Shown here one piece after another: positions 30,692-52,275 of a DNA stretch of 64,000 bases. This DNA comes from a bacterium (GTDB taxonomy: Bacteria > Zhuqueibacterota > Zhuqueibacteria > Residuimicrobiales > Krinioviventaceae). Position 1 is the stretch's first letter. Every line of letters begins with the position of its first letter. The position numbers and the translations under genes are program-made. The notes below the pieces were generated by a model, which saw only the letters and a program-made list of their open reading frames with translations, was not told the origin of the DNA and did not search any database. Location of the stretch: contig CAXXFV010000015.1 in assembly GCA_963674595.2 (NCBI GenBank), forward strand, positions 32,001 to 96,000, in the 5' to 3' direction.

Positions 30692-30729
30692 AAAAAAAGC
30701 CTGCAGAAAATATCTGCAGGCTTTTTTTT
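30692..30729. terminator. Bidirectional intrinsic terminator shared by tRNA-Arg and the fusA operon
   Basis: A7-GCCTGCAGA-AAATA-TCTGCAGGC-T8. Confidence 0.92.
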
Positions 30730-33593: not shown

Positions 33594-33641
33594 TTGTTCT
33601 CTCAATTTATTTATGTTATAAAGTGTTGCAAAACAGCCTTA

Positions 33642-33670
33642 AATATACAAATATATTTTGTGAAAAGCAA
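33642..33670 (-). promoter_or_regulatory. Putative sigma70 promoter of fusA
   Basis: TTGCTT-N17-TATATT on the minus strand. Confidence 0.55.
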
Positions 33671-33842
33671 ATTGAAAATATGTCCTTTTTGTGCCACATT
33701 CCTTTTTCTATATATAGTTAATTTCCGTGAAAAAGTAAATACAAATATTTATTTAAAAAGACAAGTTGTTGTATTATAATACGATATGGCAAAAATTTTT
33801 GATGACAATTCGGTTAAGCTATGCTGTTGTTCATTAAAATAA

Positions 33843-33858
33843 TGGCATGTTTTATGCT
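33843..33858 (+). promoter_or_regulatory. Putative sigma54 (-24/-12) promoter of the signalling cluster
   Basis: TGGCATGTTTTATGCT matches TGGCAC-N5-TTGCW with exact GG-N10-GC spacing, about 100 nt upstream of ATG 33958. Confidence 0.55.
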
Positions 33859-33957
33859 ATTTGGGCGATGAGCGTCTAATTTTTTATTGTATTGAATGTT
33901 ATGATTAGGAGGAATCATTTGCATATGACCAGGGTATGATTTTGGAATATTGATTAT

Positions 33958-36900
33958 ATGAAATACAAATACAGCTATTTATTGATTTTTATATTATTAT
34001 TTCAGTTTTTTGATACACAAAAAAGTTTTTCTATTGAAGAATATACTCCTCAATTTTCAGATCCTTTATTTGAAAAATGGCGTTGGCGTTCTTATCCTTT
34101 TTTAACAGGAAAAGGATTAAAAGATTTGGCCGAAACCGGGGATGGCAGGATATGGTTTGCGGTTAATGATGGAATATATGCTTATAACGGTTACGACTGG
34201 ACTTTGTTTACAACGGATAATGGTCTGGTTGACGGAAGTGTTTCATGTTTATATTCTTCCAGGAATTTTGGGCTTTTTGTTGGAACTGATAGAGGTGTAA
34301 GTCGATTTTTTAATGAAAAATGGGAAAAGGTTTTTAATCCTCAGTTAGAAGCTGAATGGGACGTCTATGATATAACGGTAGACGAAACTGGCGCAATATG
34401 GCTTGCAACGCGATATGGACTCGTACGTATTAATGGGCAAAAAATACATTTTTTCAGCAATGAAAGACGAATCAGAATAATTCTCGATAAAGTAAATCGT
34501 TTTTATGGGCAAAATATGTCAAAGGCAAAAAAAATAGAATACAGGAGTGCCCCTTTTAAAATTCCTGTAAATTTGTCAGGTGACTCGTTAACGGTTACAA
34601 CCATTTCTCAACCAGATTTAGATAATTTGAATTTTGATGTATATAATATTTTATTGGACTATTCAAACTATTTATGGTTTGGTTTAAAAGATGGTGCAAT
34701 TTTAAGGGGAGATTTTCGATCTTTTAATGAAGATAGTTTATATTCGATACGAGTTTATGGCCAAAAAGACGGTCTTTCAACAGGCAACAAACCCAGAATA
34801 TATGTAACTTCTGACAGCACAATATGGACTGTTTCTGAAGGTCTTGAAGGTGGTGTTAATAAATTTATTGATAACAAATGGATCAGCTTTTTTTTATCAA
34901 ATAATGGCGGATCAAACAGGAATTTAAAAGTAGCTGAAACTGATGACGGTGTTGTTTGGATATCCGGGAGCTATGCTTTACAACGTTATAAGGATAACCA
35001 TTGGAGTGTTTATACCTATGCCAGTCGTGAATTACCGATTCCTTCACAAAGGACTCGTATGCATATATCATCAGATGGTGCTATTTGGTTTTGGGGGTTT
35101 GCCCAGGAGCCTGTTCGGTTTGAATATAATTTAGATCAATGGAAAACACTTTTAAATCTCAATTATCAATGTGATACCTCGGATGGAACGCAATGGTTTT
35201 TATCCTTTGACGGAAAAGCCATCCGTAAAAGCGGCAATGAATGGAAGGCTTTTGGTGTTGAAGATGGTTTGATTAAAGATCCTGTGGCACTTTATAGTAC
35301 AAAAAAAGGGGTAATATGGGCTATAGGAAGCCATAAAAATGTTGCTGCCACAGCGTATTTTAAAGACGGAAAGTGGAAAAGAGAAAAACATCCCACTTTA
35401 AGCTGGGGAATTGACCGCAGAGCATTCCTTGAAGACAATCAAGGCCGATTATGGTTTGGAGCGGCTGCGGATACGATAACGAAAACGGGGCAAATGGGCG
35501 GATTGCTTGTTTATGAAAAAAATAAATGGCACCACTATTTTAGTAGTGAAATTCCCAGTGCTATATACGGTTTCGTTCAGACACATGATGGAAATATTTG
35601 GGCATGTGGTTATTTTGGACTGATGGTATTTGACGGGAAGGTATGGAAAAAACAGAAATTTGAGGGGATAAGCAAATATCGAAGTGATGTTATAACGACC
35701 GATTCAGACGGATTTCTTTGGGCCGGTACAAGGGGTTATGGCGTTTTTCATTATAATGGTCATAAATGGATAAATTATCAAATTAAAGATGGATTGGATG
35801 ATACACGTATTATTGATCTTTTCCATAGTTCGGATGATAATTTTTGGGCTGTCAGTTCTACTGGATTTAACAGGCATGATAATTCTATTAATGAACTGCC
35901 TTTTTGGAAAAGTGATGCCCTTCCGGTAGCAATTCATAATCCGGATTGGACAAAAATAAACGAATCTTCTGATGGTGTTTTATGGATAAATTCTTTTTCT
36001 GATGCCTGGTGTCAGCGGACAAAAAGCCAACTTGATTTTGAAATGGCAAAAGAAACAAAGTTTATGACAACGACCTTTAAACCGGATAAATTTGCCCCGA
36101 AAACAAAAATTTCTATATACTTGGATAAAGTTCCTCAACCTGGCAATGCCATTATTTCCTGGGAATCTGTTGACAAGTGGAACAGGACAAGTCAAGATGA
36201 TTTGGAATATTCATACCGGCTCGATGGGGGAATATGGTCGCATTATTCAAAAGTAAACGAAAAAGTGTTTTTTGATTTAAAAGATGGAGCTCACAAGTTT
36301 GAGGTAAAGGCCAGGGATCAGGATTTTAATGTTGAAGCTCAACCTGCTGTTTTAACTTTTAAAGTTCTCCCTCCGGTTTGGAAAGAGTCCTGGTTTCTTT
36401 ATCTTGTTTCCGTATTTACATTTATTGTTCTTTATCAATCAATACACATTATTAAAAAGAACAAAGAACTTTTAAATTCAAACAGTTCTTTAAAAGAAGC
36501 GAATAAAGATATAAAACTGAGTCAGCAAAAACTTGAAAAGGTTAACTATCAATTGGAACTAGAACTTGCTCAGCGTAAAAAAACAGAACTGGCTTTACAA
36601 CAGTCAGAATTACAATATAGTGTAACGATAAATTCGTTAAGTGAAGCCATTCATGTTATTGATAAAGACTTTAATCTGATTCTTTATAATAAAAAGTTTA
36701 AAGATCAAGTAAAAGAGGTGGGCGTTGAGGTTAACGCGACTCATGTAAATTTATTTACTCTTTTACCATTTTTAACAAAAGAACATAAAAACGAATACGA
36801 ACAAGTTTTTAAAGATAAAAAGCCTGTTGTTACAATTGAAGATATGAGAACAGTTGATAATAAAATTATAGTTGGTGAAACTTTCAAGATCCCGGTTTTA

Positions 36901-37608
36901 AAGGATGATATTGTTGAGCAGGTTATAACCGTTGTACGTGATATTACAGCTCAAAAACGACATGAACTGGAAATAAAAAATTCTTTGGAAGAAAAAAAAT
37001 TATTATTAAAAGAGATTCATCATCGTGTAAAAAATAACTTACAGATTATTTCCAGTTTGCTTTATTTACAATCCAAAAATTTGGAAAGTGAACAGGACGC
37101 CCGCTATTTTGAAGAGAGCCGAAATCGTGTTCAATCCATGGCTATCATCCATGAAAAATTGTATCAATCTGCTGACTTTTTAAAGATTAATTTTTCAGAT
37201 TATCTAAAACAGTTGACGCAAACAGTTTTACAAACCTATAGTCAAGATGATAAGAATATTAAGATAAATATAAATGTGGAAGATGTTTTTCTAAAAATTG
37301 ACCAGGCCATACCATGCGGACTTTTAGTCAATGAGTTGATTTCTAATGCACTAAAACATGCGTTTAGTGATGTGGATAAAGGTGAAATAACCGTTTATTT
37401 GGGTAAAAAAATGACAGATGAATCCGGAATGGTTTATATTTTACAAGTCCAGGATAATGGAAAAGGCGGGAATTTTGAAAATAAAATTAAAGAAAGCAAA
37501 TCGTTAGGACTACAGCTAGTTCAAAGTCTCACAAGACAGCTTGATGGTGAATTGAATTTTTATCACGATCATGGTACGAATGTGCAAATTATTTTTCCAT
37601 TTGAGTAA
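33958..37608 (+). CDS. Membrane sensor histidine kinase: beta-propeller repeats, Y_Y_Y, TM, PAS, HisKA_2, HATPase
   Basis: Repeated DG.(I/L)W(F/A) propeller blades, YSYRLDGG...[32 protein letters not shown]-box, [12 protein letters not shown] and DNG. Confidence 0.92.
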
Positions 37609-37633
37609 ATAATAATTAAATAGTGGAAGGAAA

Positions 37634-37963
37634 ATGGCAGTTATTCAATTAGAATATATCAAAACGGGAATGGTCCTCAAACAAGATGTTAAAAATACCA
37701 ATGGAGTTGTTCTATTGGGAGCGGGTGGAGTTATTAGCGAGAAAACAATACGTTTTTTTAAAATGTGGGGAATAGCAGAGATAGATATTGTTGACGATAA
37801 TAAAAAGGATAAAATTATTGTCAGTGAACCATTTTTAAAAAAAGCTGAAAAAAAATGCAAAATTTTATTTCAACATACCAATACTTCTCATCCGGTTATG
37901 AAGAGAATTTATAAATATTGTGCTGTTCGTTTTGCGGAAAAAATGGCACAGGAGAAACAATGA
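37634..37963 (+). CDS. Small conserved hypothetical protein coupled to the HDOD gene
   Basis: IKTGMVLKQDV...GVVLLGAG..ISEK.I..FKMWGI resembles the N-terminal module of HD-GYP proteins; AAGGA RBS; ATGA overlap with the next gene. Confidence 0.7.
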   Translation: MAVIQLEYIKTGMVLKQDVKNTNGVVLLGAGGVISEKTIRFFKMWGIAEIDIVDDNKKDKIIVSEPFLKKAEKKCKILFQHTNTSHPVMKRIYKYCAVRFAEKMAQEKQ

Positions 37964-38808
37964 TTGCTATTGATATTAAAAGTGAAATCTCTGAAAAAAT
38001 AAATCTTCCATCTTTACCTGTTGTTTATGTTAGATTAAGTGAAGCCATTCAGAGCCCCAACACTTCTGTTTCAGATATATGCAAAATAATAAATACGGAT
38101 GCTGGTTTGGCAACACGGTTGTTAAAGATAGCAAACAGCACAATGTATTCTTTTACTTCAAAAGTAGAAACCGTAAAAAAAGCTGTACTCGTTGTTGGAA
38201 CACGTGAACTACATGATCTGGCACTTGCCTTATATGTTTTGAAAATGTTTAAAAATATATCACCAAATTTAATTGATATAAAAGAATTTTGGAAACATAA
38301 TATTGCCTGTGGATTGGCAGCGCGTGCCATTGCATCGTTAAGAAAAGAAGTCAATGTGGAACGTTTTTTTGTAGCCGGTCTTTTACATGATTTAGGAAGG
38401 ATTTTTTTATATATTGCTTTCCCGGAAGAAAGTTATGAAACGTTAACTATTGCAAAAAGGGAAAATAGAATATTATTCAAGGTAGAAGAACAGTTTTTTG
38501 GATATGATCACGCACAGATTGGTGGTTTTTTATTAGATAACTGGGCCATACCTCAAAATTTGGTGGAAATGATTGCCTGGCACCATGCTCCCAGAAAAGC
38601 TCCAAAAAAGTATTTTTTGGATGCTGCAACCATTCATTTGGCCGACATTTTAGCTCATGCTTTATGTTATGGGTATTCGGGCGAACAATTTGTACCACCG
38701 TTAGATGAAAAAACATGGCAACAAATAGGAATTGAACCATCTGAAATAATAAATGTGATGAAAAAAGTTGATGAACAATTCCCAATTGTTGCATCTTCTG
38801 TTCTTTAA
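37960..38808 (+). CDS. HDOD domain protein
   Basis: LPSLP, DAGLATRLLKIANS, FWKHN, AGLLHDLG, DHAQIG..L...W.IP and HHAP motifs; ATG 37960 behind AGGAG. Confidence 0.93.
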   Translation: MIAIDIKSEISEKINLPSLPVVYVRLSEAIQSPNTSVSDICKIINTDAGLATRLLKIANSTMYSFTSKVETVKKAVLVVGTRELHDLALALYVLKMFKNISPNLIDIKEFWKHNIACGLAARAIASLRKEVNVERFFVAGLLHDLGRIFLYIAFPEESYETLTIAKRENRILFKVEEQFFGYDHAQIGGFLLDNWAIPQNLVEMIAWHHAPRKAPKKYFLDAATIHLADILAHALCYGYSGEQFVPPLDEKTWQQIGIEPSEIINVMKKVDEQFPIVASSVL

Positions 38809-38819
38809 AGGTAATATAA

Positions 38820-40169
38820 ATGACAAATAATATTGAATATTTAATAAACAGAGTCCGTTATTTAGAAAAAGAAAACTATGCAACCTTATACATTTTAGAT
38901 GTATTATCCAAATTTAATTTGACTATATTGAGTTTGGAAGCAAGTAAGGGCCCTGATGATATTTTTGCTATTATGCGAAAATCTCTTGGTGATTTAAATA
39001 TTTTTAAACTTTTTGCGTTTATGTTGCCAGGTAAAAAAGAGTATGATTTTGATTATATTTTATGTGAACCGGAGCAAGAAAAAAGTTATTTAAAGAAGGA
39101 AGTGGAATGGGCAATAAAAGAAGATTTTTTTGCCTGGGCATTAAAGCAAAATTGTCCCTCTTTTCGAAAAGCAAAAAAGATTAAAGATCAGTTGTTTATG
39201 CAGCCACTGATAGTTGAAGAAAAAGTTTTTGGAATGTTTGTCTGTATTGTAGATGATTTGAGCTTTAGTAAAAATGAAATTTTAATTACGGATGTTGTTT
39301 CCAATATTACCAACACTTGTTCGCGGGCTGTTGAAAGATACAGGCTTGAAGGCAAAATAATAGCAAGGACAAAAGAACTTGAAAAGGTAAATGAAGATTT
39401 AAAAAATGAAATAAAAGAAAAGGAAAAAATTTCCTCACTCCTTGATGCTGAAAGAATAAATATTGAAAATACCATAGAATCAAAAACAGAATATTTACAG
39501 GAAATGAATGCTCAACTTGAGTTTAAAGTAAAATCCAGTAAAAAAACCGAAATAAAGCTTAAAGAATCTTTATCTGAAAAAGATTTATTATTAAGAGAAA
39601 TTCATCATCGCGTAAAAAATAATTTACAGATAATTTCGAGCCTTTTATACCTTCAATCCAATAAAGTAAGGCAATCGGAATGTGTAAAGTTGTTTCATGA
39701 AAGTCAAAATCGTATTCGATCTATGGCTTTAATACATGAGAAATTGTACCAATCCAAAGACATTTCAAGAATTAATTTACGCGATTACCTGAATAGTTTA
39801 ACGGCAGAATTGGTTCAATCTTGTCAATCCGGTAATTTAATATCTCTCGAGTTGGACCTTGAAAATTTATTGTTATCTGTTGAAAAAGCTTTACCGATAG
39901 GCCTTATTGTAAATGAATTGTTTTCCAATTCGTTAAAATATGCATTTCCTGAATTTAAAAAAGGAATTATTTCTATTAGTATGAAAAGGTTTGACACCGA
40001 TAAATATATATTAAATTATAATGATAACGGAATTGGATTGCCGGACGGATTTGATTTAAACATGCACAGCTCGTTAGGATTAAGATTGGTTAGTAATTTG
40101 GTCAAACAATTGGATGGAGAGCTCGAAATATCAAGTAATAATGGGGCACACTTTGGCATTCTGTTTTGA
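38820..40169 (+). CDS. Cytoplasmic HisKA_2 histidine kinase with GAF-like N-terminal domain
   Basis: No TM helix; coiled coil; [28 protein letters not shown] and SLGL motifs. Confidence 0.9.
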
Positions 40170-40183
40170 GAGAGGGAAATGTT

Positions 40184-43100
40184 ATGGCGCGTGTATGGGT
40201 GTGCGTAATTTTTTTTATCGGGGGAGTTTGTAATGTTGTATATGGGCAAAGTTATTTTGTGCAAAAATATACTGAAAATGACGGATTGGCAAATACCACA
40301 GTTTCTGATATAGCTCAGGATAGCACAGGTAGAATGTGGTTTGCAACGAGAAGTGGTATTTCCGTGTATAACGGTTATACCTGGAAGCATCCTGCAATAG
40401 AAAAAGATCTTCCCAAAGTTGCCTTTTCCAAGCTTTACATTGATGAAAAAGGTATAGTTTGGGCTTTGTCATCATTGGGAATGACAATTTACTATTTTAA
40501 AGATAATCATTGGTATATTCTGCCTAAAACAAATACCAATGTTAGTGGTTACGAAGTGTCTTCTTTTATTGTTGATTATATGTCAGATTCTCCAATAGTA
40601 TATGTTGCAGCAAAAGAGGATGGAATATTTCAATTTTATGAAAATAGCTGGATTCATATTACCACTGATGATGGACTTTTAAGTAATGATGTAAAAAATC
40701 TGTGCAAGTTTCAGGGTGATATCCTGGTCACTTTATCGAATGGAATATGTATTATTAAAAACCACAAAGATGTAAGGGATATTACAGGCAGTTTACCTTT
40801 ACCGGATTTGCCTTTAATGGGTTTCGGCACAAGTTATAATAACAACAATGAAGATGAACCTATTTTTTATGTTGCCGGTGAAAATTGGTTGGGTATGATC
40901 AAAGATAGTACTTTTTCTTTTTTAACAAGAGATTTGGCGTTTGTAAATAAGAGTGTTAGTTATTACTGGATCGTGAAACCGGACGAATTTGGCGGTGTTA
41001 TATTGGCTAATCAGACTCAGATAAATTATATAAATAAGCAACAGCATATTATGAAACGTCTCAATGCAAAGAATGGTTTGCTTTCTACTGGGGCAACATC
41101 GGTTTTTGTGGATCGAGAAAAAAATATTTGGATTTCCAGTCCTCGTGGCGTTAGCAAAATTGTCAGTATGCGGTTTTCTAATTACACAAAGGTTATTGGA
41201 GCCTTGGCAGATGAGGTTAGTGCTATTGCGCAAATTTCTCCGAATAAATATATATGGGGGCATAATGAAGGTTTGTCATTGTTTGATGGGACTTTTTTTC
41301 AGTTGGTTCCTTTTAAGAAAAAACTGATGGATAAATACCCTGATATTCGGGTGATGGATATTAAAGTGGATAAGAATAAAACAGTTTGGTTTGCAGGATC
41401 GAGAATTGGTGTTGGATATTTAGACAAAAAAAATGAAATAAAATTGTTGAATACCACTACTGGTTCGGTATTTTCACTTAATTTTAATGAAAACAATAAT
41501 TTATATATTGCTGCAACCGAAGGATTATATATCTATAAAGATAAAAGTTTTCACTTTTTGGGCCCAAAAGGAATTAAAAACAATATTTTACGTAAAATCA
41601 CGGTTGATAAAAATGGTGTTTTGTATATTGCATCTGATCTTTATGGCGTTTGTAAATATGCTGATAAAAAATGGACTTTTTTCAAAAGTGACAATAATTC
41701 ATTAATGGATAATGTATATACGGTATATATTGATAGTAAAAACAGAATATTTGCCGGAACATTGGGAGGTCTTTGTTATGTGAATAATAATCGTTTGGAA
41801 AAATTTCAGGAAAAATCGTTTAAAATAAATCGGCCCGTTTATTTGATTTTTGAGGATGACAAAAATCGATTATGGTGTGGGACAGATAACGGTATTGTTC
41901 GCTGGGACGGTAATGAAGTGAAAGCGTTTACACAAGAAAATGGTTTTGTCGGGAGAGAGACCAATAGAAGTGCCGGGTTGGTTGATTCGGATGGAAAAGT
42001 TTGGATAGGCAGTGATTTGGGAGTTTCCTGTTACAACGAGCATTTTGATCTTGATGCTTCAGATATTGTCGCTCCTTTAACAGAAATACTTTCAATTAAT
42101 GTAGATGATGATACACTTGATCCGAATATTGTCAATAAGCTGAATTATAATCAGAACAATTTAATGTTTAGTTTTAGTTGCCTCTCTTTTATTGATGAAA
42201 AGGCTGTCCGGTTTAAAATCAAGCTGGAGGGATTTGATCCTGACTGGTATGATCTTCATACTTATTTTGAACATCATGTTCGTTACACAAATTTACCGCC
42301 GGGCCAATATCAGTTTAAGGTAAAAGCATGTAATGCTTTGGGACGCTGGAGCGATGTGAAAAAATCTGAAATTATTATTATTCAAATGCCCTTTTGGCAG
42401 CAATGGTGGTTTTATTTAATAAATTTTTGTCTGCTTTTTGGAGCTTTTTATTTGGTTTATGACCTTTTAACTAAAAATAAATATGCAACATATCTTGAGC
42501 TCGAGATTAAAAAAAGGACGCATCAGCTTCAGGTTTCGGAAAAAAAATACCGACAATTGTTTGAGGAAAATCAGGCTATTATGCTTTTTGTTGATCCCAA
42601 AAACGAACGCATTATAGATGCGAATCCTGCTGCTTGTCAATATTACGGCTATTCAATTTTTACAATACGGTTATTAAGGTTTAGTGATTTTTTAGTTGAG
42701 CCAAAAGACTTTAATACATTGAAAAATTTTAATTCACCATCATACTTTGTTATAAAACAGCAAAAGGCAACAAAAGATATTCGGGATGTTGAGGTTTATA
42801 GTTGTCCTATAATTGATGATGAAAAAACAATACTATTTTTAATAATTTATGATACAACCGAACGAACAAGCGCAGAAAATATGCTGCGATCATCTGAAGC
42901 CAGATATCGATCCGTTATTGAATATTCTCATGAAGGACACATGATTTTCAACGAACAGTTGTGTTTTGTTTTTTTAAATACTAAAGCATGTCAGATTTTG
43001 GGTTATCATCTTGAAGAGTTAATGGGGAGAGATTTTCGCAGTTATTTAAATCCAAAAAGTCAAAAAATAATTTCTAATTATTTTTCAAAAGATGATAAAG

Positions 43101-43888: not shown

Positions 43889-43933
43889 AAAATTTAATAC
43901 GGTTGATATAGCATAATGTGCTGAGGAAATAGA

Positions 43934-46810
43934 ATGGATTATATCACTGGCGAAGATCGCTTGTCAGATAAACAAAAATATTTTAATAAATTTATTGAAA
44001 ATTGGACAAAGACAGATAAAGTTAATTTGTTAAAATCAATTTGGCCGGGATGTGCTATTACAACATTAATTTTTGGGCTTGCGGCATTTATTATAGCAAC
44101 TTTTAGCTTTCCGATTTGGCAATTATACACTGTTGCATGTTTGTTTGTGGGAGAATCCGTTCTTTTTATTATTTCATACCCTTTTATATCACCATCCAGA
44201 GTTACTTTTTGGAGTTGGTTGATTATCGTATTGATGTTTTTACCGACTTTACTCGTTTCAATTTTATTGGAAGAGTTAATTGTCATAGCGATGATAATGG
44301 GGCTTTTTGTTTCTCTTTTAACAAGTATCCTCTTTACTGTTAAAAAAGGTTTTCGTGTTGCTTTTTATTTATTATGTCTGGGATTGTTGGTTTTTTTACT
44401 TCAGGAAGCCAACATATATAATTTTTATTACTGCTTACCTGCATTATATATTCAATTGACGGATATTATAGTTTTTATATTAACAATTTTTGGAGGTATT
44501 TATCTTCTTTCTTTTTATCAAAAAGCAATTAATCGATCCTTACATTCTTTACTAGTAAAAACAGATGAAATTTATAAACTAAAGTTAAATTTGGATGAGG
44601 AAATTGAAGAACGTAAAAAAATTGAAATAGAAAAAAAGGCAATTCATCATTTTTCTGAAGATAATCCTCATCCGGTATTTTCTATTTCATATTTTGGCGA
44701 AATATTATATGCAAACAGTGCTGCCGAAAGGATGTTAAAGTTATTAAAAAGATCTGTGGGGCAAATTATTCCGCTGGAATGGATTGAGGTATTAAAAAAA
44801 GTAAAAGCAACAGCAAGCCCTCAAAAAAGTAAAATTACTTTTAATGGAAAACACTATGTAATTTACTGGACACCCATCCATAATATTGAAAAAGTATATC
44901 TTTACGTTTTTGATATTTCTGACAGAATAAAAATTAAAAAAGAACTTTTAAATACACTTAATGAAACAAAGCTGAGGTCGAGAGAGCTCGATTTCATCAA
45001 AAGTGCTTCTGATGATTTGATTGCATGGCAATGGCAAAATGTAGATCAATTATACCATCAAATACTGGTACGTGCAAATGATTTTGTTGAAGGTATTGGT
45101 GGTGTTTTATATATATATGACCCGGAACATGATTATTTGACTTTTAATGTTGCTGTCGGTTCAGGATATGAAAACTCGAAGGTTATTTTACGTCGGGGAA
45201 TTGAAGCTCCCGGGCGTGCCTGGGAATGTGGAGATGCAATTATTTCAACGAAAGAAGATGACGAGAAAAAGTATCAACTTACAATACCAATAAAGTGGCG
45301 GGAAGAACTGTTAGGCGTTTTTTCTTTAAATAGAGAAAAGGTGTTTGTTGAAAGAGATAGAGAGCTAATGGTTAAATTTGTTTCGCATGCTGCGCAGGCA
45401 ATTCAAAATGCCCGTCTTGTACAAATCACTCAGGATGAAATTAATTATCGTAAAACAACTGAATTAGCCATGTTGGAAAGTGAAAGACGGTTTAAAAGTT
45501 TATTTGATAATGCTCCGGTTGGTATTTATCGCGTTAATTCAGATGGTTTTTTTCAGCAGGCAAATACAAAGTTTGCAGAAATTTTGGAACTGAATGCGCC
45601 ATTGGATTTAATAGAGAAAAATATTTCTATTAAAGATTTAATGACTCCTGCCGATTTTGAGGCCAGAAATAAACAACTGAAAACCTATGGCGAAGTAAAA
45701 AAGATGCAATCCGTGTGGGTAACCAATAAGAATAAAAAAATATGGGTTGAAGAAAATATTGTTACTATAAAAAAGGCTGATGACACTATTATAAGTTATG
45801 AAGGTACTGTTGAAAATATTGATGAAAGAAAAAAAGCCGAAGAAAAATTGAATTTGGCTGATCAAATTTTATCGCATATTGGTAATATTGTTTTGGTAGT
45901 AGATAAAAAAGCACATGTTATTTATGGAACCCTGGCTATTGAAAAAACATTGGGTTTCCCGTTATTGGAAATTTTTAAAGACGGTTGGTATAATTTTATT
46001 TACGATAATCAAAATGATATTGTAAACGAAAAACTATATTTAAAAAATGCAGCACTTGGAAAAACCGCTTTAAAGGAAAAACCCTACGAACAGTATATTG
46101 TCGACCAGTCCGGCAAAGGTCATTGGATTTTATGGCAAGACACTTTTGGCCCCCGTGGTTTTATTGTTAGAATTGGTTCGGAAATAACAGATCGGAAAAT
46201 TGCTGAACAACAAATTTTTGATTCGCTAAAAGAAAAAGAAGAGTTGTTAAAAGAGATACACCATCGTGTTAAAAACAATATGCAAATTATTTCAAGCCTT
46301 TTATACTTGCAGTCAAAAGATATAAAAGACGAAAAGATAAACGAAATGTTGTTAAACAGCCAAAATCGAATTAAAACAATGGCTTTAATTCATGAAAAGC
46401 TATATCAATCAAAAGATCTTACAAATATTGATTTTGCAGATTACATAAAATCTCTTTTAATATCTTTTATAAAATATCCAAATATAAAGATAACTTCACA
46501 GGTTGATTCAATAAGGCTGCCCATAACCAAAGCAATTCCATGTGGTTTGATTGTGAATGAGCTTGTTACCAATGCTATTAAATACGCTTTCCCTGATGAT
46601 AAGAAGGGAAATATTATAATCTCTTTAATTGAAGGTGAAGAACATTTTACTTTAACCGTCCGGGATGATGGTATAGGAATGTCAAAAATTGACTTTTCTA
46701 ACATTAAAACTTTGGGCCTGACTCTTGTGGATAGTTTGACAAAGCAATTAAATGGTCATATTGAAACGAATAGTGAGAATGGAACCAGTTTTCAAATTAA
46801 TTTTAATTGA
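43934..46810 (+). CDS. Multi-TM sensor histidine kinase with PAS and GAF domains and HisKA_2
   Basis: About 6 N-terminal TM helices, PAS (NPHPV..YANSAA), GAF (QAIQNARL), further PAS domains and [11 protein letters not shown]. Confidence 0.92.
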   Translation: MDYITGEDRLSDKQKYFNKFIENWTKTDKVNLLKSIWPGCAITTLIFGLAAFIIATFSFPIWQLYTVACLFVGESVLFIISYPFISPSRVTFWSWLIIVLMFLPTLLVSILLEELIVIAMIMGLFVSLLTSILFTVKKGFRVAFYLLCLGLLVFLLQEANIYNFYYCLPALYIQLTDIIVFILTIFGGIYLLSFYQKAINRSLHSLLVKTDEIYKLKLNLDEEIEERKKIEIEKKAIHHFSEDNPHPVFSISYFGEILYANSAAERMLKLLKRSVGQIIPLEWIEVLKKVKATASPQKSKITFNGKHYVIYWTPIHNIEKVYLYVFDISDRIKIKKELLNTLNETKLRSRELDFIKSASDDLIAWQWQNVDQLYHQILVRANDFVEGIGGVLYIYDPEHDYLTFNVAVGSGYENSKVILRRGIEAPGRAWECGDAIISTKEDDEKKYQLTIPIKWREELLGVFSLNREKVFVERDRELMVKFVSHAAQAIQNARLVQITQDEINYRKTTELAMLESERRFKSLFDNAPVGIYRVNSDGFFQQANTKFAEILELNAPLDLIEKNISIKDLMTPADFEARNKQLKTYGEVKKMQSVWVTNKNKKIWVEENIVTIKKADDTIISYEGTVENIDERKKAEEKLNLADQILSHIGNIVLVVDKKAHVIYGTLAIEKTLGFPLLEIFKDGWYNFIYDNQNDIVNEKLYLKNAALGKTALKEKPYEQYIVDQSGKGHWILWQDTFGPRGFIVRIGSEITDRKIAEQQIFDSLKEKEELLKEIHHRVKNNMQIISSLLYLQSKDIKDEKINEMLLNSQNRIKTMALIHEKLYQSKDLTNIDFADYIKSLLISFIKYPNIKITSQVDSIRLPITKAIPCGLIVNELVTNAIKYAFPDDKKGNIIISLIEGEEHFTLTVRDDGIGMSKIDFSNIKTLGLTLVDSLTKQLNGHIETNSENGTSFQINFN

Positions 46811-46871
46811 TAATAGCAGATGATTTGTTATATTGTGCCGATATCGTTAACTATAGAGGTTTTGTTAAATT

Positions 46872-48341
46872 ATGCAGGAAAAGATCAACGTACTCGTTGT
46901 TGAAGATGAAATGATCGTTTCATTGGAATTGCAGGATCGATTAAAATCTTTAGGATATAATGTTTGCGGAGATGCTTCTTCAGGTGAAGATGCTCTTTTA
47001 CGTATAGAAAAGTTTCGTCCGGATGTGGTATTGATGGATATTATGCTAAAGGGACCCATTGATGGTGTAATGGCGGCGGAAAAAATTAAATTAAAATATA
47101 CCATTCCGGTTATTTTTCTGACGGCCTATTCAGACAATGCAACACTTGAACGTGCAAAAATTACGGAACCTTATGGTTATCTGTTGAAACCATTTGATGA
47201 GCGAATGTTAAGCACAACTATTGAAATGGCTTTGCTGCGTCACAAGCTCGAAATTAAATTGAAATCCAGTGAGAGTTGGCTGACAACTATATTAAAAAGT
47301 ATTGGTGATGCTGTTATTGCCACTGATGCAAATGGTGTCATAAAATTTATGAATCCTATTGCTGAAAAATTAACAGGATGGTCTGAAGAAGAGGCCCTTA
47401 ATCACACTTTAAATCAGGTATATCGTTTGGTTATTCCCGGGCAAAATGGTGATAAGGTTAAAGATTCTAACCTTCAAAAAGATGGGAATATTCAATATCG
47501 AATTTTGCTTTCAAAGAATAACAGGCAAATTTTTATTGAAGAGACATATTCCTTTATAAAAACGGACCAAAAGAAGGTGATTGGTTCTGTTTTAGCATTT
47601 CGTGATGTTTCCGAACGAATACAGGCTCAGGAACGTAAAAATATACTTGTAAATGAGCTTGAGAATATCAATAAAGAACTTCAGGACTTTGCTTATATCG
47701 TTTCACACGATTTAAAAGCGCCATTGCGCGCTGTGGGTTCCCTTGCTGAATGGATTTTAACCGACTATGTTGGGAATTTTGATGACAAAGGCAAGGAGAT
47801 GATGAATTTGTTGATGGGGCGTGTAAACAGAATGCATGAATTGATTGAAGGTGTATTACAGTATTCTCGTCTTGGGCGTTTTCGTGAAGACAAGATGCCG
47901 GTAGATTTGAATAGTATATTGAAAAAAGTAATTGAAAATAGTGATGTAACGAAAAATATTGTAATAAAAGTTGAAAATGAATTACCTGAAATAGAAATTG
48001 AGCCTGTGCGAATTGAACAGGTATTTCAAAATTTAATTGGAAATGCAATTAAATATAATGACAAACAAGAAGGTTTGGTAAAAATCGGTTGTTTGGAATT
48101 AGAAAATAGCTGGAAATTTTGGGTAGCAGATAACGGCCCCGGAATTGATAAAAAGTATTTTGATAAAATATTTCAAATATTTCAAACATTAAATGCCCGC
48201 GATGATGTTGAAAGTACGGGCATAGGGCTGACACTTGTTAAAAAGATTGTGGAAATGTATCAGGGAAAAGTTTGGCTGGAATCTGAAATTGGAAAAGGGT
48301 GTACCTTTTATTTTACTTTACCAAAGCTGATTGGCGAATAG
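46872..48341 (+). CDS. Hybrid kinase REC-PAS-HisKA-HATPase with phytochrome-type transmitter
   Basis: VVEDE..DVVLMD..FLTA..KPF receiver; PAS; FAYIVSHDLKAPLR; QNLIGNAIKY; STGIGL. Confidence 0.93.
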   Translation: MQEKINVLVVEDEMIVSLELQDRLKSLGYNVCGDASSGEDALLRIEKFRPDVVLMDIMLKGPIDGVMAAEKIKLKYTIPVIFLTAYSDNATLERAKITEPYGYLLKPFDERMLSTTIEMALLRHKLEIKLKSSESWLTTILKSIGDAVIATDANGVIKFMNPIAEKLTGWSEEEALNHTLNQVYRLVIPGQNGDKVKDSNLQKDGNIQYRILLSKNNRQIFIEETYSFIKTDQKKVIGSVLAFRDVSERIQAQERKNILVNELENINKELQDFAYIVSHDLKAPLRAVGSLAEWILTDYVGNFDDKGKEMMNLLMGRVNRMHELIEGVLQYSRLGRFREDKMPVDLNSILKKVIENSDVTKNIVIKVENELPEIEIEPVRIEQVFQNLIGNAIKYNDKQEGLVKIGCLELENSWKFWVADNGPGIDKKYFDKIFQIFQTLNARDDVESTGIGLTLVKKIVEMYQGKVWLESEIGKGCTFYFTLPKLIGE

Positions 48342-48357
48342 TAAGCCGGAGTGAAAA

Positions 48358-48768
48358 ATGAAAACTCTACGATCAATACTTTTAATTGAAGATGATCAGG
48401 TAGATGCTTTAACTGTTAAGCGGGCATTTAAAGAATTAAATATAGAGAACAACTTGGTGGTTGTTTCAAATGGTGAACAAGCATTTGACTATTTAAAAAG
48501 TAATAAAAACAATCCGGGATATATTTTACTGGATCTAAATATGCCGCGACAAAATGGAATAGAGTTTTTAAAACTTATAAAAAAGGACATTCGGTTAAAA
48601 AAAATACCAATTATTGTTTTAACAACTTCCACAGAGGAAAGTGACTTGATGGAATGCTATAATCTGAGTGTAGCAGGATATATGATTAAACCGGTAAATT
48701 ACAAAAAATTTGTTGAAATAATTAATGCAATAAATACTTATTGGAATTTGAGTGAATTGCCTGCATAA
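48358..48768 (+). CDS. Single-domain response regulator, Rcp1-like
   Basis: LIEDD, LLDLNMP, LTTS, KPV and the YW C-terminal motif of Rcp-type receivers. Confidence 0.92.
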   Translation: MKTLRSILLIEDDQVDALTVKRAFKELNIENNLVVVSNGEQAFDYLKSNKNNPGYILLDLNMPRQNGIEFLKLIKKDIRLKKIPIIVLTTSTEESDLMECYNLSVAGYMIKPVNYKKFVEIINAINTYWNLSELPA

Positions 48769-48791
48769 ATTTAAAAACGATTAGGTTGACT

Positions 48792-49757
48792 ATGAAAAAG
48801 GCTAAATGTAAATTATTACTTGTTGAAGATGACTTTATAGATCAATTGGCGTTCAAACGCATTGTTGATCAACAAATGATTGATTATGAATATGTGATTG
48901 CTGATTCAGTAAGCTCTGCAAAAAATATATTCCAAAATCATAAATTTGATATTGTCATTACAGATTATCAGCTCGGAGATGGAACAGCTTTTGATATTTT
49001 CAAGTTTGTAGAGAAAACACCTGTCATTTTTACAACAGGTGCCGGTAATGAAGAGATTGCCATAAAAGCAATGAAGGCAGGAGCCTATGATTATTTGATA
49101 AAGGATAAAGAGCGGAATTATTTGAAAATTTTACCATTAACAGTGGAAAACACCATAAAATATCATAGTGCCGAAATACAATCTCAAATGCTGTCTCAGG
49201 CAATTACAAGTACACGTGACAGTGTCTTTATTACAAATCTTGAGAATGACATTATTTTTGTGAATCGTGCCTTTTGTGAAACCTATCAATATACTGAAGA
49301 AGAAATAATTGGTAAAAGTGCCTCTCAGATTTCAAATGATGAGAATTTTGAATCAGTGTTTCATGATAAAAATTTGCAGAATCAGAAAGAAACTTATCAT
49401 GTTAGAAAAAGTGGTACCAAATTTCCGGTTTCTGTTACAGAATCTCTAATTAAAGATGAGAATGGAAAAAATATATCTGTTGTAAGGGCTGTTCGTGATA
49501 TTACGGAGAGGAAAAAAGCGGAAAATGAGCGCGAAAAATTAATAACAAAATTAAAAAAGGCATTAGAAGAAGTCAATACTTTGAGCGGCCTTTTGCCGAT
49601 GTGTGCTTCCTGTAAAAAAATTAGAGATGATGACGGTTATTGGAAGCAAGTGGAAGCATATATTCAGGATCATGTTGATGTGGAAATTAGCCACGGAATT
49701 TGTCCTGATTGTATGAAAAAACTTTACCCATCTGTTATTGAAAAGCTTAAAAAATAA
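48792..49757 (+). CDS. Response regulator REC-PAS with C-terminal Cys4 domain
   Basis: Receiver (VEDD, ITDY, K), PAS (VNRAFC...RDITERK) and the tail LLPMCASCKKIRD..GYW...SHGICPDC. Confidence 0.88.
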   Translation: MKKAKCKLLLVEDDFIDQLAFKRIVDQQMIDYEYVIADSVSSAKNIFQNHKFDIVITDYQLGDGTAFDIFKFVEKTPVIFTTGAGNEEIAIKAMKAGAYDYLIKDKERNYLKILPLTVENTIKYHSAEIQSQMLSQAITSTRDSVFITNLENDIIFVNRAFCETYQYTEEEIIGKSASQISNDENFESVFHDKNLQNQKETYHVRKSGTKFPVSVTESLIKDENGKNISVVRAVRDITERKKAENEREKLITKLKKALEEVNTLSGLLPMCASCKKIRDDDGYWKQVEAYIQDHVDVEISHGICPDCMKKLYPSVIEKLKK

Positions 49758-49810
49758 TGCTGGTACATTTGGTTTTTTTGCTTAAATTTTAAATATTTTA
49801 GAGTTATTTC

Positions 49811-49840
49811 TTGATTTTTAATTGTGTAAATCTTTATATT
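49811..49840 (+). promoter_or_regulatory. Putative internal sigma70 promoter
   Basis: TTGATT-N18-TATATT in the 140-nt AT-rich gap before the pseudo-receiver gene. Confidence 0.4.
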
Positions 49841-49897
49841 AAATAAATGTTTTTTCTTAAAATATTCTTATACAACTTTGACTATTAATAATATAGC

Positions 49898-50305
49898 TTG
49901 ATGATAAAACAAAAAATAAAAATACTTGTTGCAGAATATGAAGCCATTGTTGGTATGGAAATTGAATATCGGTTACGGCAATTGGGTTTAGACGTTGCCG
50001 CTATAGTGCCCACCGGTGAAAAAGCTATTCAATTTGTAGAAAAAAATGCACCTGATCTGGCGTTATTAAGTGTTATTTTGCGTGGTAATCTGGACGGAGT
50101 GGATACCGCACTACAATTGAAAAATTTTAAAGACATGCCAATTATCTTTTTAACTTCTGTAACGGATAAAAAAAGCCTCAAGCGAATGCGAGATTTAGAA
50201 CCGTTTGATATAATAAAAATTCCTTTTGAAGGATTTGAACTTGATCAAGCTGTAGAAAATGCTGTCAAATTTTTGGAAGAAAAAAATAGCTTACCATTAT
50301 CGTAA
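49898..50305 (+). CDS. Atypical (pseudo-)receiver protein
   Basis: Receiver fold, paralogous to the 46872 and 50350 receivers, but with AEYE and DLALLSVILRG (phosphoacceptor Asp replaced by Ser). Confidence 0.82.
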   Translation: MMIKQKIKILVAEYEAIVGMEIEYRLRQLGLDVAAIVPTGEKAIQFVEKNAPDLALLSVILRGNLDGVDTALQLKNFKDMPIIFLTSVTDKKSLKRMRDLEPFDIIKIPFEGFELDQAVENAVKFLEEKNSLPLS

Positions 50306-50349
50306 AGTAATTCAAATTTTTTAAAATATTCTTAAGGTATAACTACTAG

Positions 50350-52275
50350 ATGGCCAATAAATATAAAATTCTAGTTGTTGAAGATGAAACAATCGTATCC
50401 ATGGAAATTCAGGATCGATTGAAAGAAATGAACTATCTTGTTTGCGGTGCTGCTTCATCCGGAGAGGAAGCTATACGCAAAAGTGCTGAATCGGAACCTG
50501 ATCTTGTCCTGATGGATATCATGTTAAAAGGAAAAATGGACGGTATTGAGGCGGCTGATGTAGTAATTAAAGAACATGGTATACCGGTAATATTTTTAAC
50601 AGCTCATTCAGATGAAGCAACTTTACAACGTGCAAAATTAACCGCCCCGTTTGGTTATTTATTAAAACCATTTAATGATCGTGCATTACATACGACTATT
50701 GAAATGGCTTTATACCGGCACGAGATGGAGAAAAAAGTACGAGACAGTGAAAAATGGCTCAGTACCACCCTGACAAGCCTGAACGAAGGTGTCATTACTA
50801 CGGATAAAAGCGGCAAAATAAAATTTATAAATCCGATAGCTGAAAAAATGACCGGGTGGTCTGCTACAGACGCTGTTTCTTTAAAGGTTTCAGAGGTTTT
50901 CAAGATTTTTTCTGAAAAAGACCATGAAAAACTGGATTGCCCTGTACACTCTATTCTTAATGATTCTCAAAATAACAAAAGTAACTATTCATCTTTATTG
51001 ACCAACAAAAACGGCAAAGAATTTTTAATTGATCATTTTGAATCATTGATAAAAAACCATAAAGATAAAACGATTGGTGCTATTCTTGTTTTTAGAGATA
51101 TTTCTGAACGAAGGCGTTTGGAAGACCAGTTTCATCAGGCCCAAAAGATGGAAAGTATTGGGCTGCTGGCAGGTGGTGTTGCCCATGATTTTAATAATAT
51201 TTTGAGCGCTATACTCGGCTATGCTTCTTTTATGAAGATGAAAATGAACGAGGATCATCCGTTTTTTAATTATGTGGATACAATTGAAAAAAGTGCCATT
51301 CGTGGTGCGGATTTAACAGCACAATTGTTGTCTTTTGCCCGTAAGGGGCAGTTAAACATTAAATCTCTTGATCTTAATGCGGTTGTTTCAGAGGCATTAA
51401 AAGTTGTCAAGAGCACTTTTGATCGGTCCATCGAGATAGAAACAACTTTTTTCCCTGCATTACCGACTATAGATATCGATGAGATAAAAATGCAGCAAAT
51501 TTTAATGAATTTGTTCGTTAACGCGCGCGATGCTATGCCAAAGGGGGGAAAATTAACAATTGAAACAAATATTGCACGTTTTACGGGAAAACGAAATGAT
51601 TTGACACTGGACCTTGAACCCGGCGTGTATGCTGTGCTTTCCGTCGCTGATACAGGAACAGGTATTGACGAAAAAATATTAAAAAGTATTTTTGAGCCGT
51701 TCTTTACTACCAAGGAAAAAGGAAAAGGCACAGGACTTGGATTATCTATGGTATATGGCGTTGTTAAAAATTTAAAAGGAGATATCCAGGTTGACAGTAA
51801 AATAGGAAAAGGAACTCGTTTTAATATTTATCTGCCTATTAGTGGAAAACCGGAACAAAAAGATCATCTGGAATTGGATGCACCACTGGGAAAAGGCGAA
51901 ACTATCCTTGTTGTTGATGACGAAGAAACGATACGAGATTTTGTTGATCTTTCTTTTAAGAAAAACGGATATAAAGTTATTTTAGCAGAAAATGGTTTGG
52001 AAGGGGTCAAGGTATTTAAAAAGAACAAGGATAATATTGACCTGGTGATTCTTGACCTGGTTATGCCGAAAATGGGCGGATTTGAGGCCTATGAAGAGAT
52101 GCGTAAAATTTCACCCAAAACGAAATTTATTTATACGACAGGCTATACGGAAGATATCAAGATGAAGGAAATTACAAAAAGCGGTATAGATGGATTTTTA
52201 CGAAAGCCTTGTCAGATAAAGGAACTGTTGTCGGAAACCCGACGTGTTTTAGATATGAAAAAACCTGAGAAATAA
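50350..52275 (+). CDS. Hybrid kinase REC-PAS-HisKA-HATPase-REC (CckA/NtrB-type transmitter)
   Basis: QAQKMESIGLLAGGVAHDFNN, NLFVNARDAM, FEPFFTTK..GKGTGLGL and two intact receiver domains. Confidence 0.94.
   Translation: MANKYKILVVEDETIVSMEIQDRLKEMNYLVCGAASSGEEAIRKSAESEPDLVLMDIMLKGKMDGIEAADVVIKEHGIPVIFLTAHSDEATLQRAKLTAPFGYLLKPFNDRALHTTIEMALYRHEMEKKVRDSEKWLSTTLTSLNEGVITTDKSGKIKFINPIAEKMTGWSATDAVSLKVSEVFKIFSEKDHEKLDCPVHSILNDSQNNKSNYSSLLTNKNGKEFLIDHFESLIKNHKDKTIGAILVFRDISERRRLEDQFHQAQKMESIGLLAGGVAHDFNNILSAILGYASFMKMKMNEDHPFFNYVDTIEKSAIRGADLTAQLLSFARKGQLNIKSLDLNAVVSEALKVVKSTFDRSIEIETTFFPALPTIDIDEIKMQQILMNLFVNARDAMPKGGKLTIETNIARFTGKRNDLTLDLEPGVYAVLSVADTGTGIDEKILKSIFEPFFTTKEKGKGTGLGLSMVYGVVKNLKGDIQVDSKIGKGTRFNIYLPISGKPEQKDHLELDAPLGKGETILVVDDEETIRDFVDLSFKKNGYKVILAENGLEGVKVFKKNKDNIDLVILDLVMPKMGGFEAYEEMRKISPKTKFIYTTGYTEDIKMKEITKSGIDGFLRKPCQIKELLSETRRVLDMKKPEK

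Follow-up and report, generated by a model that had tools for sequence, protein, structure and literature searches.

HisKA_2 sensor kinases and receiver-controlled kinases in a lineage-specific gene cluster of the Krinioviventaceae: a possible multi-tier phosphorelay assembled from recurring modules

Partner rules between sensor kinases and receivers are known mainly for HisKA kinases, and the literature that we searched names no cognate receiver class for HisKA_2 kinases outside the Alphaproteobacteria. Within that class, several HWE/HisKA2 kinases converge on MrrA, SdrG and PhyR in the general stress response, and SdrG and MrrA share the FATGUY motif PFxFATG(G/Y), according to the account in PMC5964349. 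In the Lvr pathway of Leptospira (LvrA to LvrB to LvrC), a kinase is described as phosphorylating the N-terminal receiver of a second kinase (PMC13269768, PMC5863495); in LvrB, phosphorylation of the receiver releases the catalytic domains, and this mechanism of activating a receiver-controlled kinase was, as PMC13269768 presents it, solved only in 2026. Here we describe a cluster of 11 genes, g1 to g11, found in a 64,000-nucleotide stretch of DNA (the window) from a bacterium of the family Krinioviventaceae (assembly GCA_963674595.2, contig CAXXFV010000015.1, positions 32,001 to 96,000), and compare it with these and other described systems. Coordinates of the cluster and its surroundings are positions within the window.

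The cluster occupies 33958..52275 on the + strand, where the open reading frame (ORF) listing holds exactly 11 ORFs. The distances between them, from g1 to g11, are 25, -4, 11, -4, 45, 61, 16, 17, 140 and 44 bases. By a Pfam scan of all 11 proteins, together with sequence comparisons, six are kinases, four of them with HisKA_2 and two, controlled by receivers, with HisKA. The other five are an HDOD protein and its small partner, an Rcp1-like receiver, a pseudo-receiver and a REC-PAS-Cys4 protein. A preliminary description of the stretch had given the same inventory and had noted the lack of HTH, AraC, GGDEF, EAL, Che and AAA+ families; both statements were borne out, none of these families being present in any of the 11 proteins at E <= 0.01. 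Pfam likewise found no DNA-binding or cyclic-nucleotide domain in the 11 proteins. We propose that the cluster is a lineage-specific super-operon of four kinds of module that may together form a multi-tier phosphorelay, and we give this proposal an even chance of being correct. It draws on what was observed of the domains of the proteins, the classes of their receivers, the neighbouring genes, co-occurrence across genomes and gene fusions.

Four of the proteins, g1, g4, g5 and g6, are HisKA_2 histidine kinases by their domains: PF07568 scored 98.8, 103.5, 99.6 and 99.5 bits, respectively, against a cut-off of 22.3, and HATPase_c scored above 26.4 bits in each. Their sensory portions differ. 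The tier-1 sensor kinase g1 (33958..37608, + strand; 1216 amino acids, aa) has a periplasmic Reg_prop propeller, one transmembrane (TM) segment, PAS, HisKA_2 and HATPase; a hydropathy scan placed its TM-like segment at residues 811-829, and the hydrophobic N-terminus was judged by eye from the sequence. The N-terminal part of g1 is 28-30% identical to three propeller proteins of ~1350 aa in the same genome. In g5 (40166..43888, + strand; 1240 aa, start codon uncertain), a periplasmic propeller and Y_Y_Y precede a TM segment, two PAS domains, HisKA_2 and HATPase, and the hydropathy scan found one internal TM-like segment plus an N-terminal hydrophobic segment. The Y_Y_Y match was above the cut-off in g5 (54.7 bits) and below it in g1 (18.7 vs 26.6). 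About five TM segments (five TM-like segments within residues 39-193) open g6 (43934..46810, + strand; 958 aa) and are followed by a weak GAF (matches below the cut-off, 25.4 vs 28.6), PAS, HisKA_2 and HATPase. The fourth kinase, g4 (38820..40169, + strand; 449 aa), is soluble, with zero TM-like segments in the hydropathy scan, and consists of an N-terminal helix and GAF-like domain, a coiled coil, HisKA_2 and HATPase.

Bacteroides hybrid two-component systems are defined by a fused receiver and AraC DNA-binding domain. Like the members of known structure (4A2L/4A2M, 3V9F, 3OTT), g1 and g5 have Reg_prop propellers and Y_Y_Y (sub-threshold in g1) followed by one TM helix, and the periplasmic part of g5 matched the sensor structures 4A2L/4A2M at E 2.5e-42. 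Unlike them, g1 and g5 have a cytoplasmic part composed of PAS, HisKA_2 and HATPase with no fused receiver or AraC domain; Pfam found neither REC nor HTH_AraC in either protein. The g5 propeller may also vary between strains: in contigs from sequencing run X4 the cluster differs by 0.5-3%, but 40784-41712, within the propeller, is either uncovered or far more divergent (290 bases with 43 substituted letters and 11 gaps). Such divergence may reflect diversification of a ligand-binding propeller between strains.

The four HisKA_2 cores are mutually 44-51% identical and are not each other's nearest paralogues, closer ones being encoded elsewhere in the genome; recent tandem duplication of the four kinases was therefore ruled out. 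For all four cores the best NCBIfam match was PhyK, in each case below the cut-off. The genome (6.6 Mb on 37 contigs) yielded 37 HisKA_2 matches and 111 receiver matches.

Evidence on the partners of these kinases came from a group of receivers that we call P-type. In a tree of the 111 receiver matches, ten formed a clade (support 0.896) that contains the N-terminal receivers of g7 and g11 as well as g10, and the same ten were the best matches to the receiver half of the PhyR model. Their distribution was surveyed in 41 genomes, this one and 40 of the same family or order, using Pfam HisKA_2 and a profile of nine P-type receivers at E <= 1e-25. HisKA_2 was found in 15/41 genomes, with the highest count in the present one, and P-type receivers in 16/41. 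P-type receivers were present in all 15 of the genomes with HisKA_2 and in 1/26 without it, and in the 15 positive genomes the two copy numbers rose together (Spearman 0.91); as these genomes are kin rather than independent, the counts overstate the independent support, and p-values would do the same.

The two are also found side by side. In five relatives, picked for their richness in HisKA_2, 22 of 44 P-type receivers lay within 5 kb of a HisKA_2 domain, against 1-4% expected. Among the stand-alone P-type receivers of the same genomes, 14 of 23 had a HisKA_2 domain starting no more than 1.5 kb away, at 583-743 bases, a distance consistent with a receiver gene directly behind the kinase. Where only one of each exists, in genome G019, the HisKA_2 kinase (CHASE8-HAMP-HisKA_2) adjoins the P-type protein, a sigma54 activator of the order P-REC-PAS-PAS-sigma54 activator-HTH (P-REC, P-type receiver domain); the same adjacency was seen by coordinates in G029 and G035. 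In the present genome, HisKA_2 lay within 5 kb of 7/10 P-type receivers vs 20/101 other receivers. Beyond the order, a profile of g11 retrieved 80 loci across phyla, four of them with a P-type N-terminal receiver, and a HisKA_2 kinase stood immediately upstream in two of these four, from metagenome-assembled genomes (MAGs) of Desulfobacteraceae and Ignavibacteriales, vs 0/76 of the others. The Desulfobacteraceae locus encodes a P-REC-HisKA_3 kinase followed by a NarL-type regulator, so that there the second tier ends on DNA. In a Desulfobacteraceae MAG a relative of g11 (44% identical) follows a HisKA_2 kinase. As a separate observation, locus L110 (G013:C43:18001-32000) carries two tandem units, each consisting of a propeller-HisKA_2 kinase (1069 and 1652 aa) and, directly behind it, a 122-aa P-type receiver. 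These units suggest that propellers of the Bacteroides hybrid type have repeatedly been coupled to HisKA_2 transmitters in this family.

Similarity to the alphaproteobacterial general stress response lies in sensors of the HisKA_2 family, differing inputs and a special class of receiver, with the PhyK and PhyR models as the best matches. The differences are several. Full-length PhyR was not found in the genome: NF006623 gave 20 matches, all confined to model positions ~105 to 256, and the best scored 106.5 bits vs a cut-off of 240. The FATGUY motif is missing from the receivers, the P-type members having KPF instead; a six-frame search of the genome for PFxFATG(G/Y) returned 10 loose matches, none of them in a receiver. 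In addition, the receivers here are fused to kinases, not to a sigma-like domain, and the host, probably of the FCB group, is not an alphaproteobacterium.

The proposed second tier consists of g7 (46872..48341, + strand; 489 aa), with P-type REC, PAS, HisKA and HATPase, and g11 (50350..52275, + strand; 641 aa), in which the same domains are followed by a C-terminal REC. Their N-terminal receivers have E, D, D, T and K at the key positions, and as judged from sequence both proteins are of the Rec-HK architecture, with an intact Asp in an N-terminal receiver that precedes the DHp-CA core. The preliminary description had called both of them hybrid kinases; this is correct for g11, but g7 has no C-terminal receiver and is therefore a receiver-controlled kinase rather than a classical hybrid. 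The best NCBIfam match was CckA-like for g11 (below the cut-off) and LvrA for g7, and LvrB was matched by g9 and g11, the Lvr matches all falling far below the cut-off.

If the order of action is as we propose from the genes, it resembles that of the Lvr pathway: an upstream kinase phosphorylates the N-terminal receiver of a receiver-controlled kinase, which then autophosphorylates and hands phosphate on to a receiver protein with no DNA-binding activity. It differs from Lvr in three respects. A PAS domain separates receiver from DHp in g7 and g11, but not in LvrB, which is Rec-DHp-CA; tier 1 here is of the HisKA_2 type, with four candidate upstream kinases; and the downstream partners here are an Rcp1-like receiver and a REC-PAS-Cys4 protein, with no anti-sigma factor.

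The probable partner of g7 is g8 (48358..48768, + strand; 136 aa), a stand-alone receiver encoded 16 bases behind it. A search for relatives of known structure placed g8 closest to phytochrome-associated receivers (Rcp1, RcpA, RcpB and others; n=12 phytochrome-associated or similar, E 1e-19 to 2e-27), with receivers of the CheY type reaching only E 1e-11 to 1e-12, and the earlier label of Rcp1-like can be retained. The pair g7-g8 is like Cph1/Rcp1 in that a receiver nearest to Rcp1, RcpA, RcpB and bacteriophytochrome receivers directly follows a HisKA kinase; it is unlike Cph1/Rcp1 in that g7 lacks a PHY/GAF chromophore module, its input being a receiver and PAS. On contig C1, too, a HisKA kinase is immediately followed by a receiver of this kind, a paralogue of g8 (38% identical). 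The remaining P-type member of the cluster, g10 (49898..50305, + strand; 135 aa; REC 43.5 bits), is a pseudo-receiver, as had been claimed: S occupies the phospho-acceptor position and Y replaces one of the acidic pair. The Asp was kept in 22/23 stand-alone P-type receivers of five related genomes (the 23rd was not alignable) and in 3/3 others of the present genome.

The proposed flow of phosphate is as follows. Four HisKA_2 sensor kinases would read differing inputs: g1 and g5 through periplasmic propellers of the glycan-sensing Bacteroides type, g6 through its multi-pass membrane domain and PAS, and g4 through a GAF-like domain working with g2 and the HDOD protein g3, whose metal site is intact. 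These kinases would phosphorylate the N-terminal P-type receiver of g7 and that of g11, and each phosphorylated receiver would switch on the HisKA core behind it, as in LvrB. From g7, phosphate would pass to the Rcp1-like receiver g8; from g11, it would pass to the protein's own C-terminal receiver, then to an Hpt encoded on contig C22 or C1, and finally to a REC-Cys4 protein (g9 and/or its paralogue on C22). Having no phospho-acceptor, g10 would most likely serve as a decoy or dock that binds the HisKA_2 kinases or whatever P-type receivers act upon, damping or biasing the flow. We infer every phosphotransfer step, the convergence of the four kinases, the role of g10 and the action of the Cys4 tail from the gene-level evidence presented here. 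The preliminary description had likewise proposed two tiers; genomic context (receiver clade, co-occurrence and adjacency) supports its idea that HisKA_2 kinases act on the N-terminal receivers of g7 and g11, and does not support its placement of the HDOD pair downstream, to which we return below.

Phosphate could also run the other way. The HisKA_2 proteins might be mainly phosphatases or histidine phosphotransferases for the P-type receivers, with phosphate entering through g7 and g11 or from kinases outside the cluster and then being drained or relayed by the HisKA_2 proteins. According to PMC5964349, Caulobacter PhyK and LovK show no autokinase activity in vitro and obtain phosphate from MrrA. 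In the present genome many HisKA_2 kinases carry an N-terminal receiver of their own, so that HisKA_2 proteins can sit downstream of receivers. However, g1, g4, g5 and g6 have a complete HATPase_c, large sensors and no receiver, which is the layout of a primary sensor, and in G019 a P-REC sigma-54 activator is encoded behind the HisKA_2 kinase, whose sensor is periplasmic, as an ordinary sensor-regulator pair. We regard this reversed direction of flow as very improbable.

Smaller cascades of the same parts occur elsewhere. On contig C6 of the same genome, a mini-cluster encodes a P-REC-PAS-HisKA_3 kinase, a propeller-HisKA_2 kinase, a P-REC hybrid that is a paralogue of g11 (41-43% identical) and a REC-HDOD protein. 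In G006, a relative of g7 with the same architecture (35% identical) is flanked by two HisKA_2 kinases. The G020 version begins with a HisKA_2 kinase and a stand-alone P-type receiver, and continues with REC-Cys4 and then a P-REC hybrid to which Hpt is fused.

Synteny of the whole 11-gene set, on the other hand, was not recovered, contrary to the co-conservation that the preliminary description had expected and whose lack it had named as grounds against its own interpretation. No full-length relative of g6 was found in the 40 related genomes, where the best match was 38% identical over residues 502-957, the C-terminal kinase part; pattern searches for g6 gave 36 matches in genome contigs and 181 in metagenome contigs, and 0 were confirmed in either. 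Orthologues of g11 were 52-54% identical in five genomes of two genera, with a second set at 38-41%. At the 10 loci fetched, where ORFs were assigned by a simple longest-ORF rule, no relatives of g1-g10 lay beside the g11 orthologue, except for a small receiver downstream in five. Contigs of four sequencing runs from four studies contain long parts of the cluster at 0-3% difference; the cluster is therefore stable in near-identical strains only. It is best described as a lineage-specific assembly of recurring modules.

Several observations weigh against a shared relay within the cluster, in addition to the kinship of the surveyed genomes and the choice of the five rich in HisKA_2. Counted by locus, the enrichment of HisKA_2 near P-type receivers in the present genome is modest (4/7 vs 10/62 for other receivers), and the other two of the four P-REC loci from across phyla have no HisKA_2 kinase. 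All 10 loci with g11 orthologues are set among housekeeping genes with no HisKA_2 kinase nearby. Pfam found no Hpt in the cluster, and yet g11 has a C-terminal receiver; nothing singles out g9, rather than the C22 protein, as the one that would receive phosphate from g11. The 140-base gap before g10 may split transcription, and the 18 sequencing runs that contain the stretch include no RNA run. Finally, as the four cores are not mutual nearest paralogues, they need not share one specificity.

This last point leads to a different explanation, in which the cluster merely gathers insulated pathways: each HisKA_2 kinase would have its own partner, be it g7, g11 or a P-type receiver encoded elsewhere, such as those on contigs C26, C16 and C28, and no signals would be integrated. 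Outside the cluster the genome has three more P-type receivers of the stand-alone form, any of which could serve. The limited identity of the cores and their closer paralogues elsewhere are in keeping with it, as are the usual unit in relatives, one kinase plus one receiver, and the failure of the whole set to be conserved. The genome-wide ratio can be read in two ways. With 37 HisKA_2 kinases and 9-10 P-type receivers, shared or orphan wiring would be a property of the genome and not of the cluster in particular; by the same arithmetic (37 kinases vs ~10 receivers), many-to-few wiring is required if the P-type receivers are the cognate class. Within the cluster, four kinases face two P-type receivers that can be phosphorylated, which makes local one-to-one pairing impossible, and convergence of HWE/HisKA2 kinases on shared receivers is documented in PMC5964349. 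We consider fully insulated pathways unlikely, and retain convergence on g7 and g11 as our working proposal.

The candidate for a terminal output is g9 (48786..49757, + strand; 323 aa), composed of REC, PAS, a coiled coil and a Cys4(His) tail that has no Pfam family. This tail, at 49533-49757 (residues ~250-323), has the motif LPxCxxCKKIRDDxGYW...SHGICPxC, and the last ~75 residues of g9 belong to a module with invariant C, C, H, C and C. Six further copies are encoded in the genome, and the tail was also noted at L135:8364-9023 and L156:3801-4433. A search limited to one range of lengths gave 5012 protein clusters with the tail, which follows PAS, GAF, HAMP, membrane or receiver domains. Literature searches with the motif strings CKKIRD and SHGICP found no mention. 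A model of the tail (AF2 pLDDT 82.5) had no match in the Protein Data Bank (PDB) by Foldseek at E <= 0.001, and the best Z in a wide VIA-align search was 3.3, so that the tail was assigned to no fold.

Of the three Hpt domains in the genome, one directly precedes a REC-Cys4 gene: on contig C22 (L135:7908-9023), a stand-alone Hpt (149 aa) is separated by 6 bases from a REC-Cys4 protein (219 aa), between unrelated flanks. This unit is likely a shared end station for the hybrid kinases of the genome. Because Hpt precedes REC-Cys4 on C22, and because the REC-Cys4 gene in G020 lies between the P-type receiver and the hybrid kinase with Hpt, the Cys4 tail is the strongest candidate for the point at which relays of hybrid kinases, like that of g11, end.

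The proteins g2, g3 and g4 are best considered together. The first, g2 (37634..37963, + strand), is a 109-aa protein with no Pfam family that belongs to a widespread unnamed family of ~110-aa proteins (804 representatives at E <= 1e-3) and appears to be the split-off N-terminal module of HDOD proteins, HDOD being fused in all five of the long members (~420 aa) scanned. Ignavibacteriota was the most frequent phylum in the g2-like Atlas cluster, and a word search returned g2 itself as the sole match. The HDOD protein g3 (37960..38808, + strand) had been given a TTG start at 37918; the ATG at 37960 is more likely, and overlaps the g2 stop as ATGA. Pfam scores were 206.7 bits for HDOD and 32.2 bits for HD. 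The closest solved relative of g3 is 3HC1 (E 6.9e-27), in which, as described in PMC12075610, two irons are coordinated by five His and one Asp. Aligned with 3HC1, g3 keeps the H..HD..H..HH pattern in full, and H113, H143, D144, H184, H208 and H209 were invariant in 11 sequences. Since the metal-site pattern of this di-iron protein is kept, it is not certain that g3 is non-enzymatic.

In a survey of 167 genomes of the phylum, 12 genomes (this one included) had a g2 homologue, and 11 loci were fetched. Ten of the 11 showed the same order: a g2 homologue, an HDOD protein (36-41% identical to g3) and a kinase; the 11th, whose g2 match is interrupted by a stop, was unreadable. When the first 240 residues of ten cassette kinases were made into a profile, it matched residues 3-222 of g4 at 106.5 bits (E 1.1e-33), and a model of the g4 N-terminal domain (AF2 pLDDT 85.4) was GAF-like, the best Foldseek match having E 3.4e-5. 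By these comparisons, g2-g3-g4 is a member of a conserved cassette of small protein, HDOD and GAF kinase, with the same gene order, small-protein family, metal-intact HDOD subtype and GAF-like front of the kinase. It differs in its transmitter. The other cassette kinases scanned had PF00512 HisKA (9/9), mostly with C-terminal receivers, whereas g4 alone had PF07568, with no C-terminal receiver. We therefore view g4 as the cassette kinase re-plugged into the HisKA_2 channel by a swap of transmitter type, which we count as new. Within the family, a g2 homologue and the cassette were found in the present genome and in 0/18 others, and g3-type HDOD proteins in the 40 related genomes were only 25-29% identical to g3.

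Because g2 and g3 travel with the sensing end of a kinase, we have moved the HDOD pair from the output of the system, where the preliminary description had it, to its input, where it probably acts. The original placement has its own merits. Phosphorylated receivers (g8, or others like g10) might bind g2-g3, which would then act as a metal-dependent phosphohydrolase or as a SadB-like proteolysis adaptor, the protein-level output first envisaged. REC-HDOD fusions directly follow P-REC kinases on C6 and in G008, G001 and G011, so in this family HDOD can act as the output of a response regulator; HDOD is also present in MmoQ, a protein deposited as a response regulator; SadB (YbaK and HDOD) is presented in PMC12075610 as an adaptor for AmrZ proteolysis; and the metal ligands are kept in g3. 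Yet g3 has no receiver, and the REC-HDOD proteins are of another HDOD subtype (28-34% identical to g3, vs 36-41% for the cassette HDODs). In addition, the pair precedes a kinase with a co-conserved N-terminal domain at 10/11 loci, regardless of the genes downstream. An output role for g2-g3 thus appears quite improbable, and a role at the input of g4 is preferred.

Some further similarities of g2 were recorded. Residues 3-40 (37640-37753) are similar to the tail that ends REC-HD-GYP regulators of the NosR family (E 1.1e-4), and the g2 profile weakly matched the C-termini of two proteins of 380-396 aa that adjoin HDOD genes (L106:1288-2430 and L127:8209-9399), one of which is REC-HD_5. Judging from these resemblances, the g2-like segment may be a docking peptide common to HD-GYP and HDOD systems. 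The N-terminus of the REC-HDOD protein on contig C6 was also compared with g2 and showed no similarity (E 31). In one genome of the phylum, locus L127 (G105:C4:46501-57600) holds three signalling genes of the HD superfamily in a row: REC-HDOD and REC-HD_5 come first and are followed by the cassette, here with a hybrid kinase behind the small protein and HDOD.

The surroundings of the cluster are unrelated to it. Both flanks are on the opposite strand, with EF-G upstream and a periplasmic binding protein downstream. By its position, divergent from EF-G, the upstream intergenic region (33606..33957, + strand) is the presumed promoter region. Neither a sigma-70 pattern scan (118 promoter-like sites vs 85.9 expected, FCB promoters lying outside the coverage of the tool) nor a terminator scan (14 terminator-like sites vs 9.6 expected) was informative. 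Upstream of EF-G are a 375-aa ORF with no Pfam family (29338-30465) and a 236-aa KaiC/AAA_25-like ATPase (30728-31438). A CHASE2-adenylate/guanylate cyclase (57818-59992) and a SpoIIE-type phosphatase (60775-61971) are encoded 5.5 kb downstream of the cluster, beyond genes for a fucose isomerase, a D-Ala-D-Ala ligase and DapF; the neighbourhood, though not the cluster itself, thus includes an enzyme of second-messenger metabolism. The window also contains a C25 peptidase gene with weak T9SS-tail matches.

The preliminary description had further likened the cluster to kinase networks of methanogenic archaea and some anaerobes, in which HisKA_2 kinases and stand-alone receivers would operate with no DNA-binding output. 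That archaeal regulators are mostly stand-alone receivers or receivers with PAS/GAF is stated in PMC5847659, which supports this comparison as regards the receivers; HisKA_2 does not appear in the main text of that paper. What was already known of the components described here includes cascades from a kinase to a receiver-controlled kinase, convergence of several kinases, propeller sensors and Rcp1-like receivers. New are the rule by which HisKA_2 kinases outside the Alphaproteobacteria pair with a single receiver clade and the proposed employment of this rule to drive second kinases, as well as the pseudo-receiver and, likely, the Cys4 tail as an end point. In its broadest and more tentative form, which we think rather doubtful as a whole, the interpretation would be that HisKA_2 kinases and P-type receivers constitute a separate phosphotransfer channel in these FCB-group bacteria, one that typically lets sensors switch on a further kinase or a sigma-54 activator instead of controlling genes themselves. 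Here, four sensors would then act on two kinases, with g10 tuning the flow, a di-metal HDOD protein and its small subunit serving g4 as a co-receptor (for a ligand or redox state), and the widespread but undescribed Cys4 tail as a metal-binding output.

If the pathways were in truth insulated, the cluster would be just a large but ordinary collection of two-component genes. Under the proposed wiring, it would offer a natural setting in which to study how many inputs are integrated on a few receiver-controlled kinases. The near-perfect co-occurrence and the adjacency of HisKA_2 kinases and P-type receivers provide a concrete, testable partner rule, one that would account for the wiring of a genome with 37 such kinases. 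The cluster also bears on the function of HDOD proteins, tied here to the sensing end of a kinase, and on that of the Cys4 tail, which is worth a study of its own.

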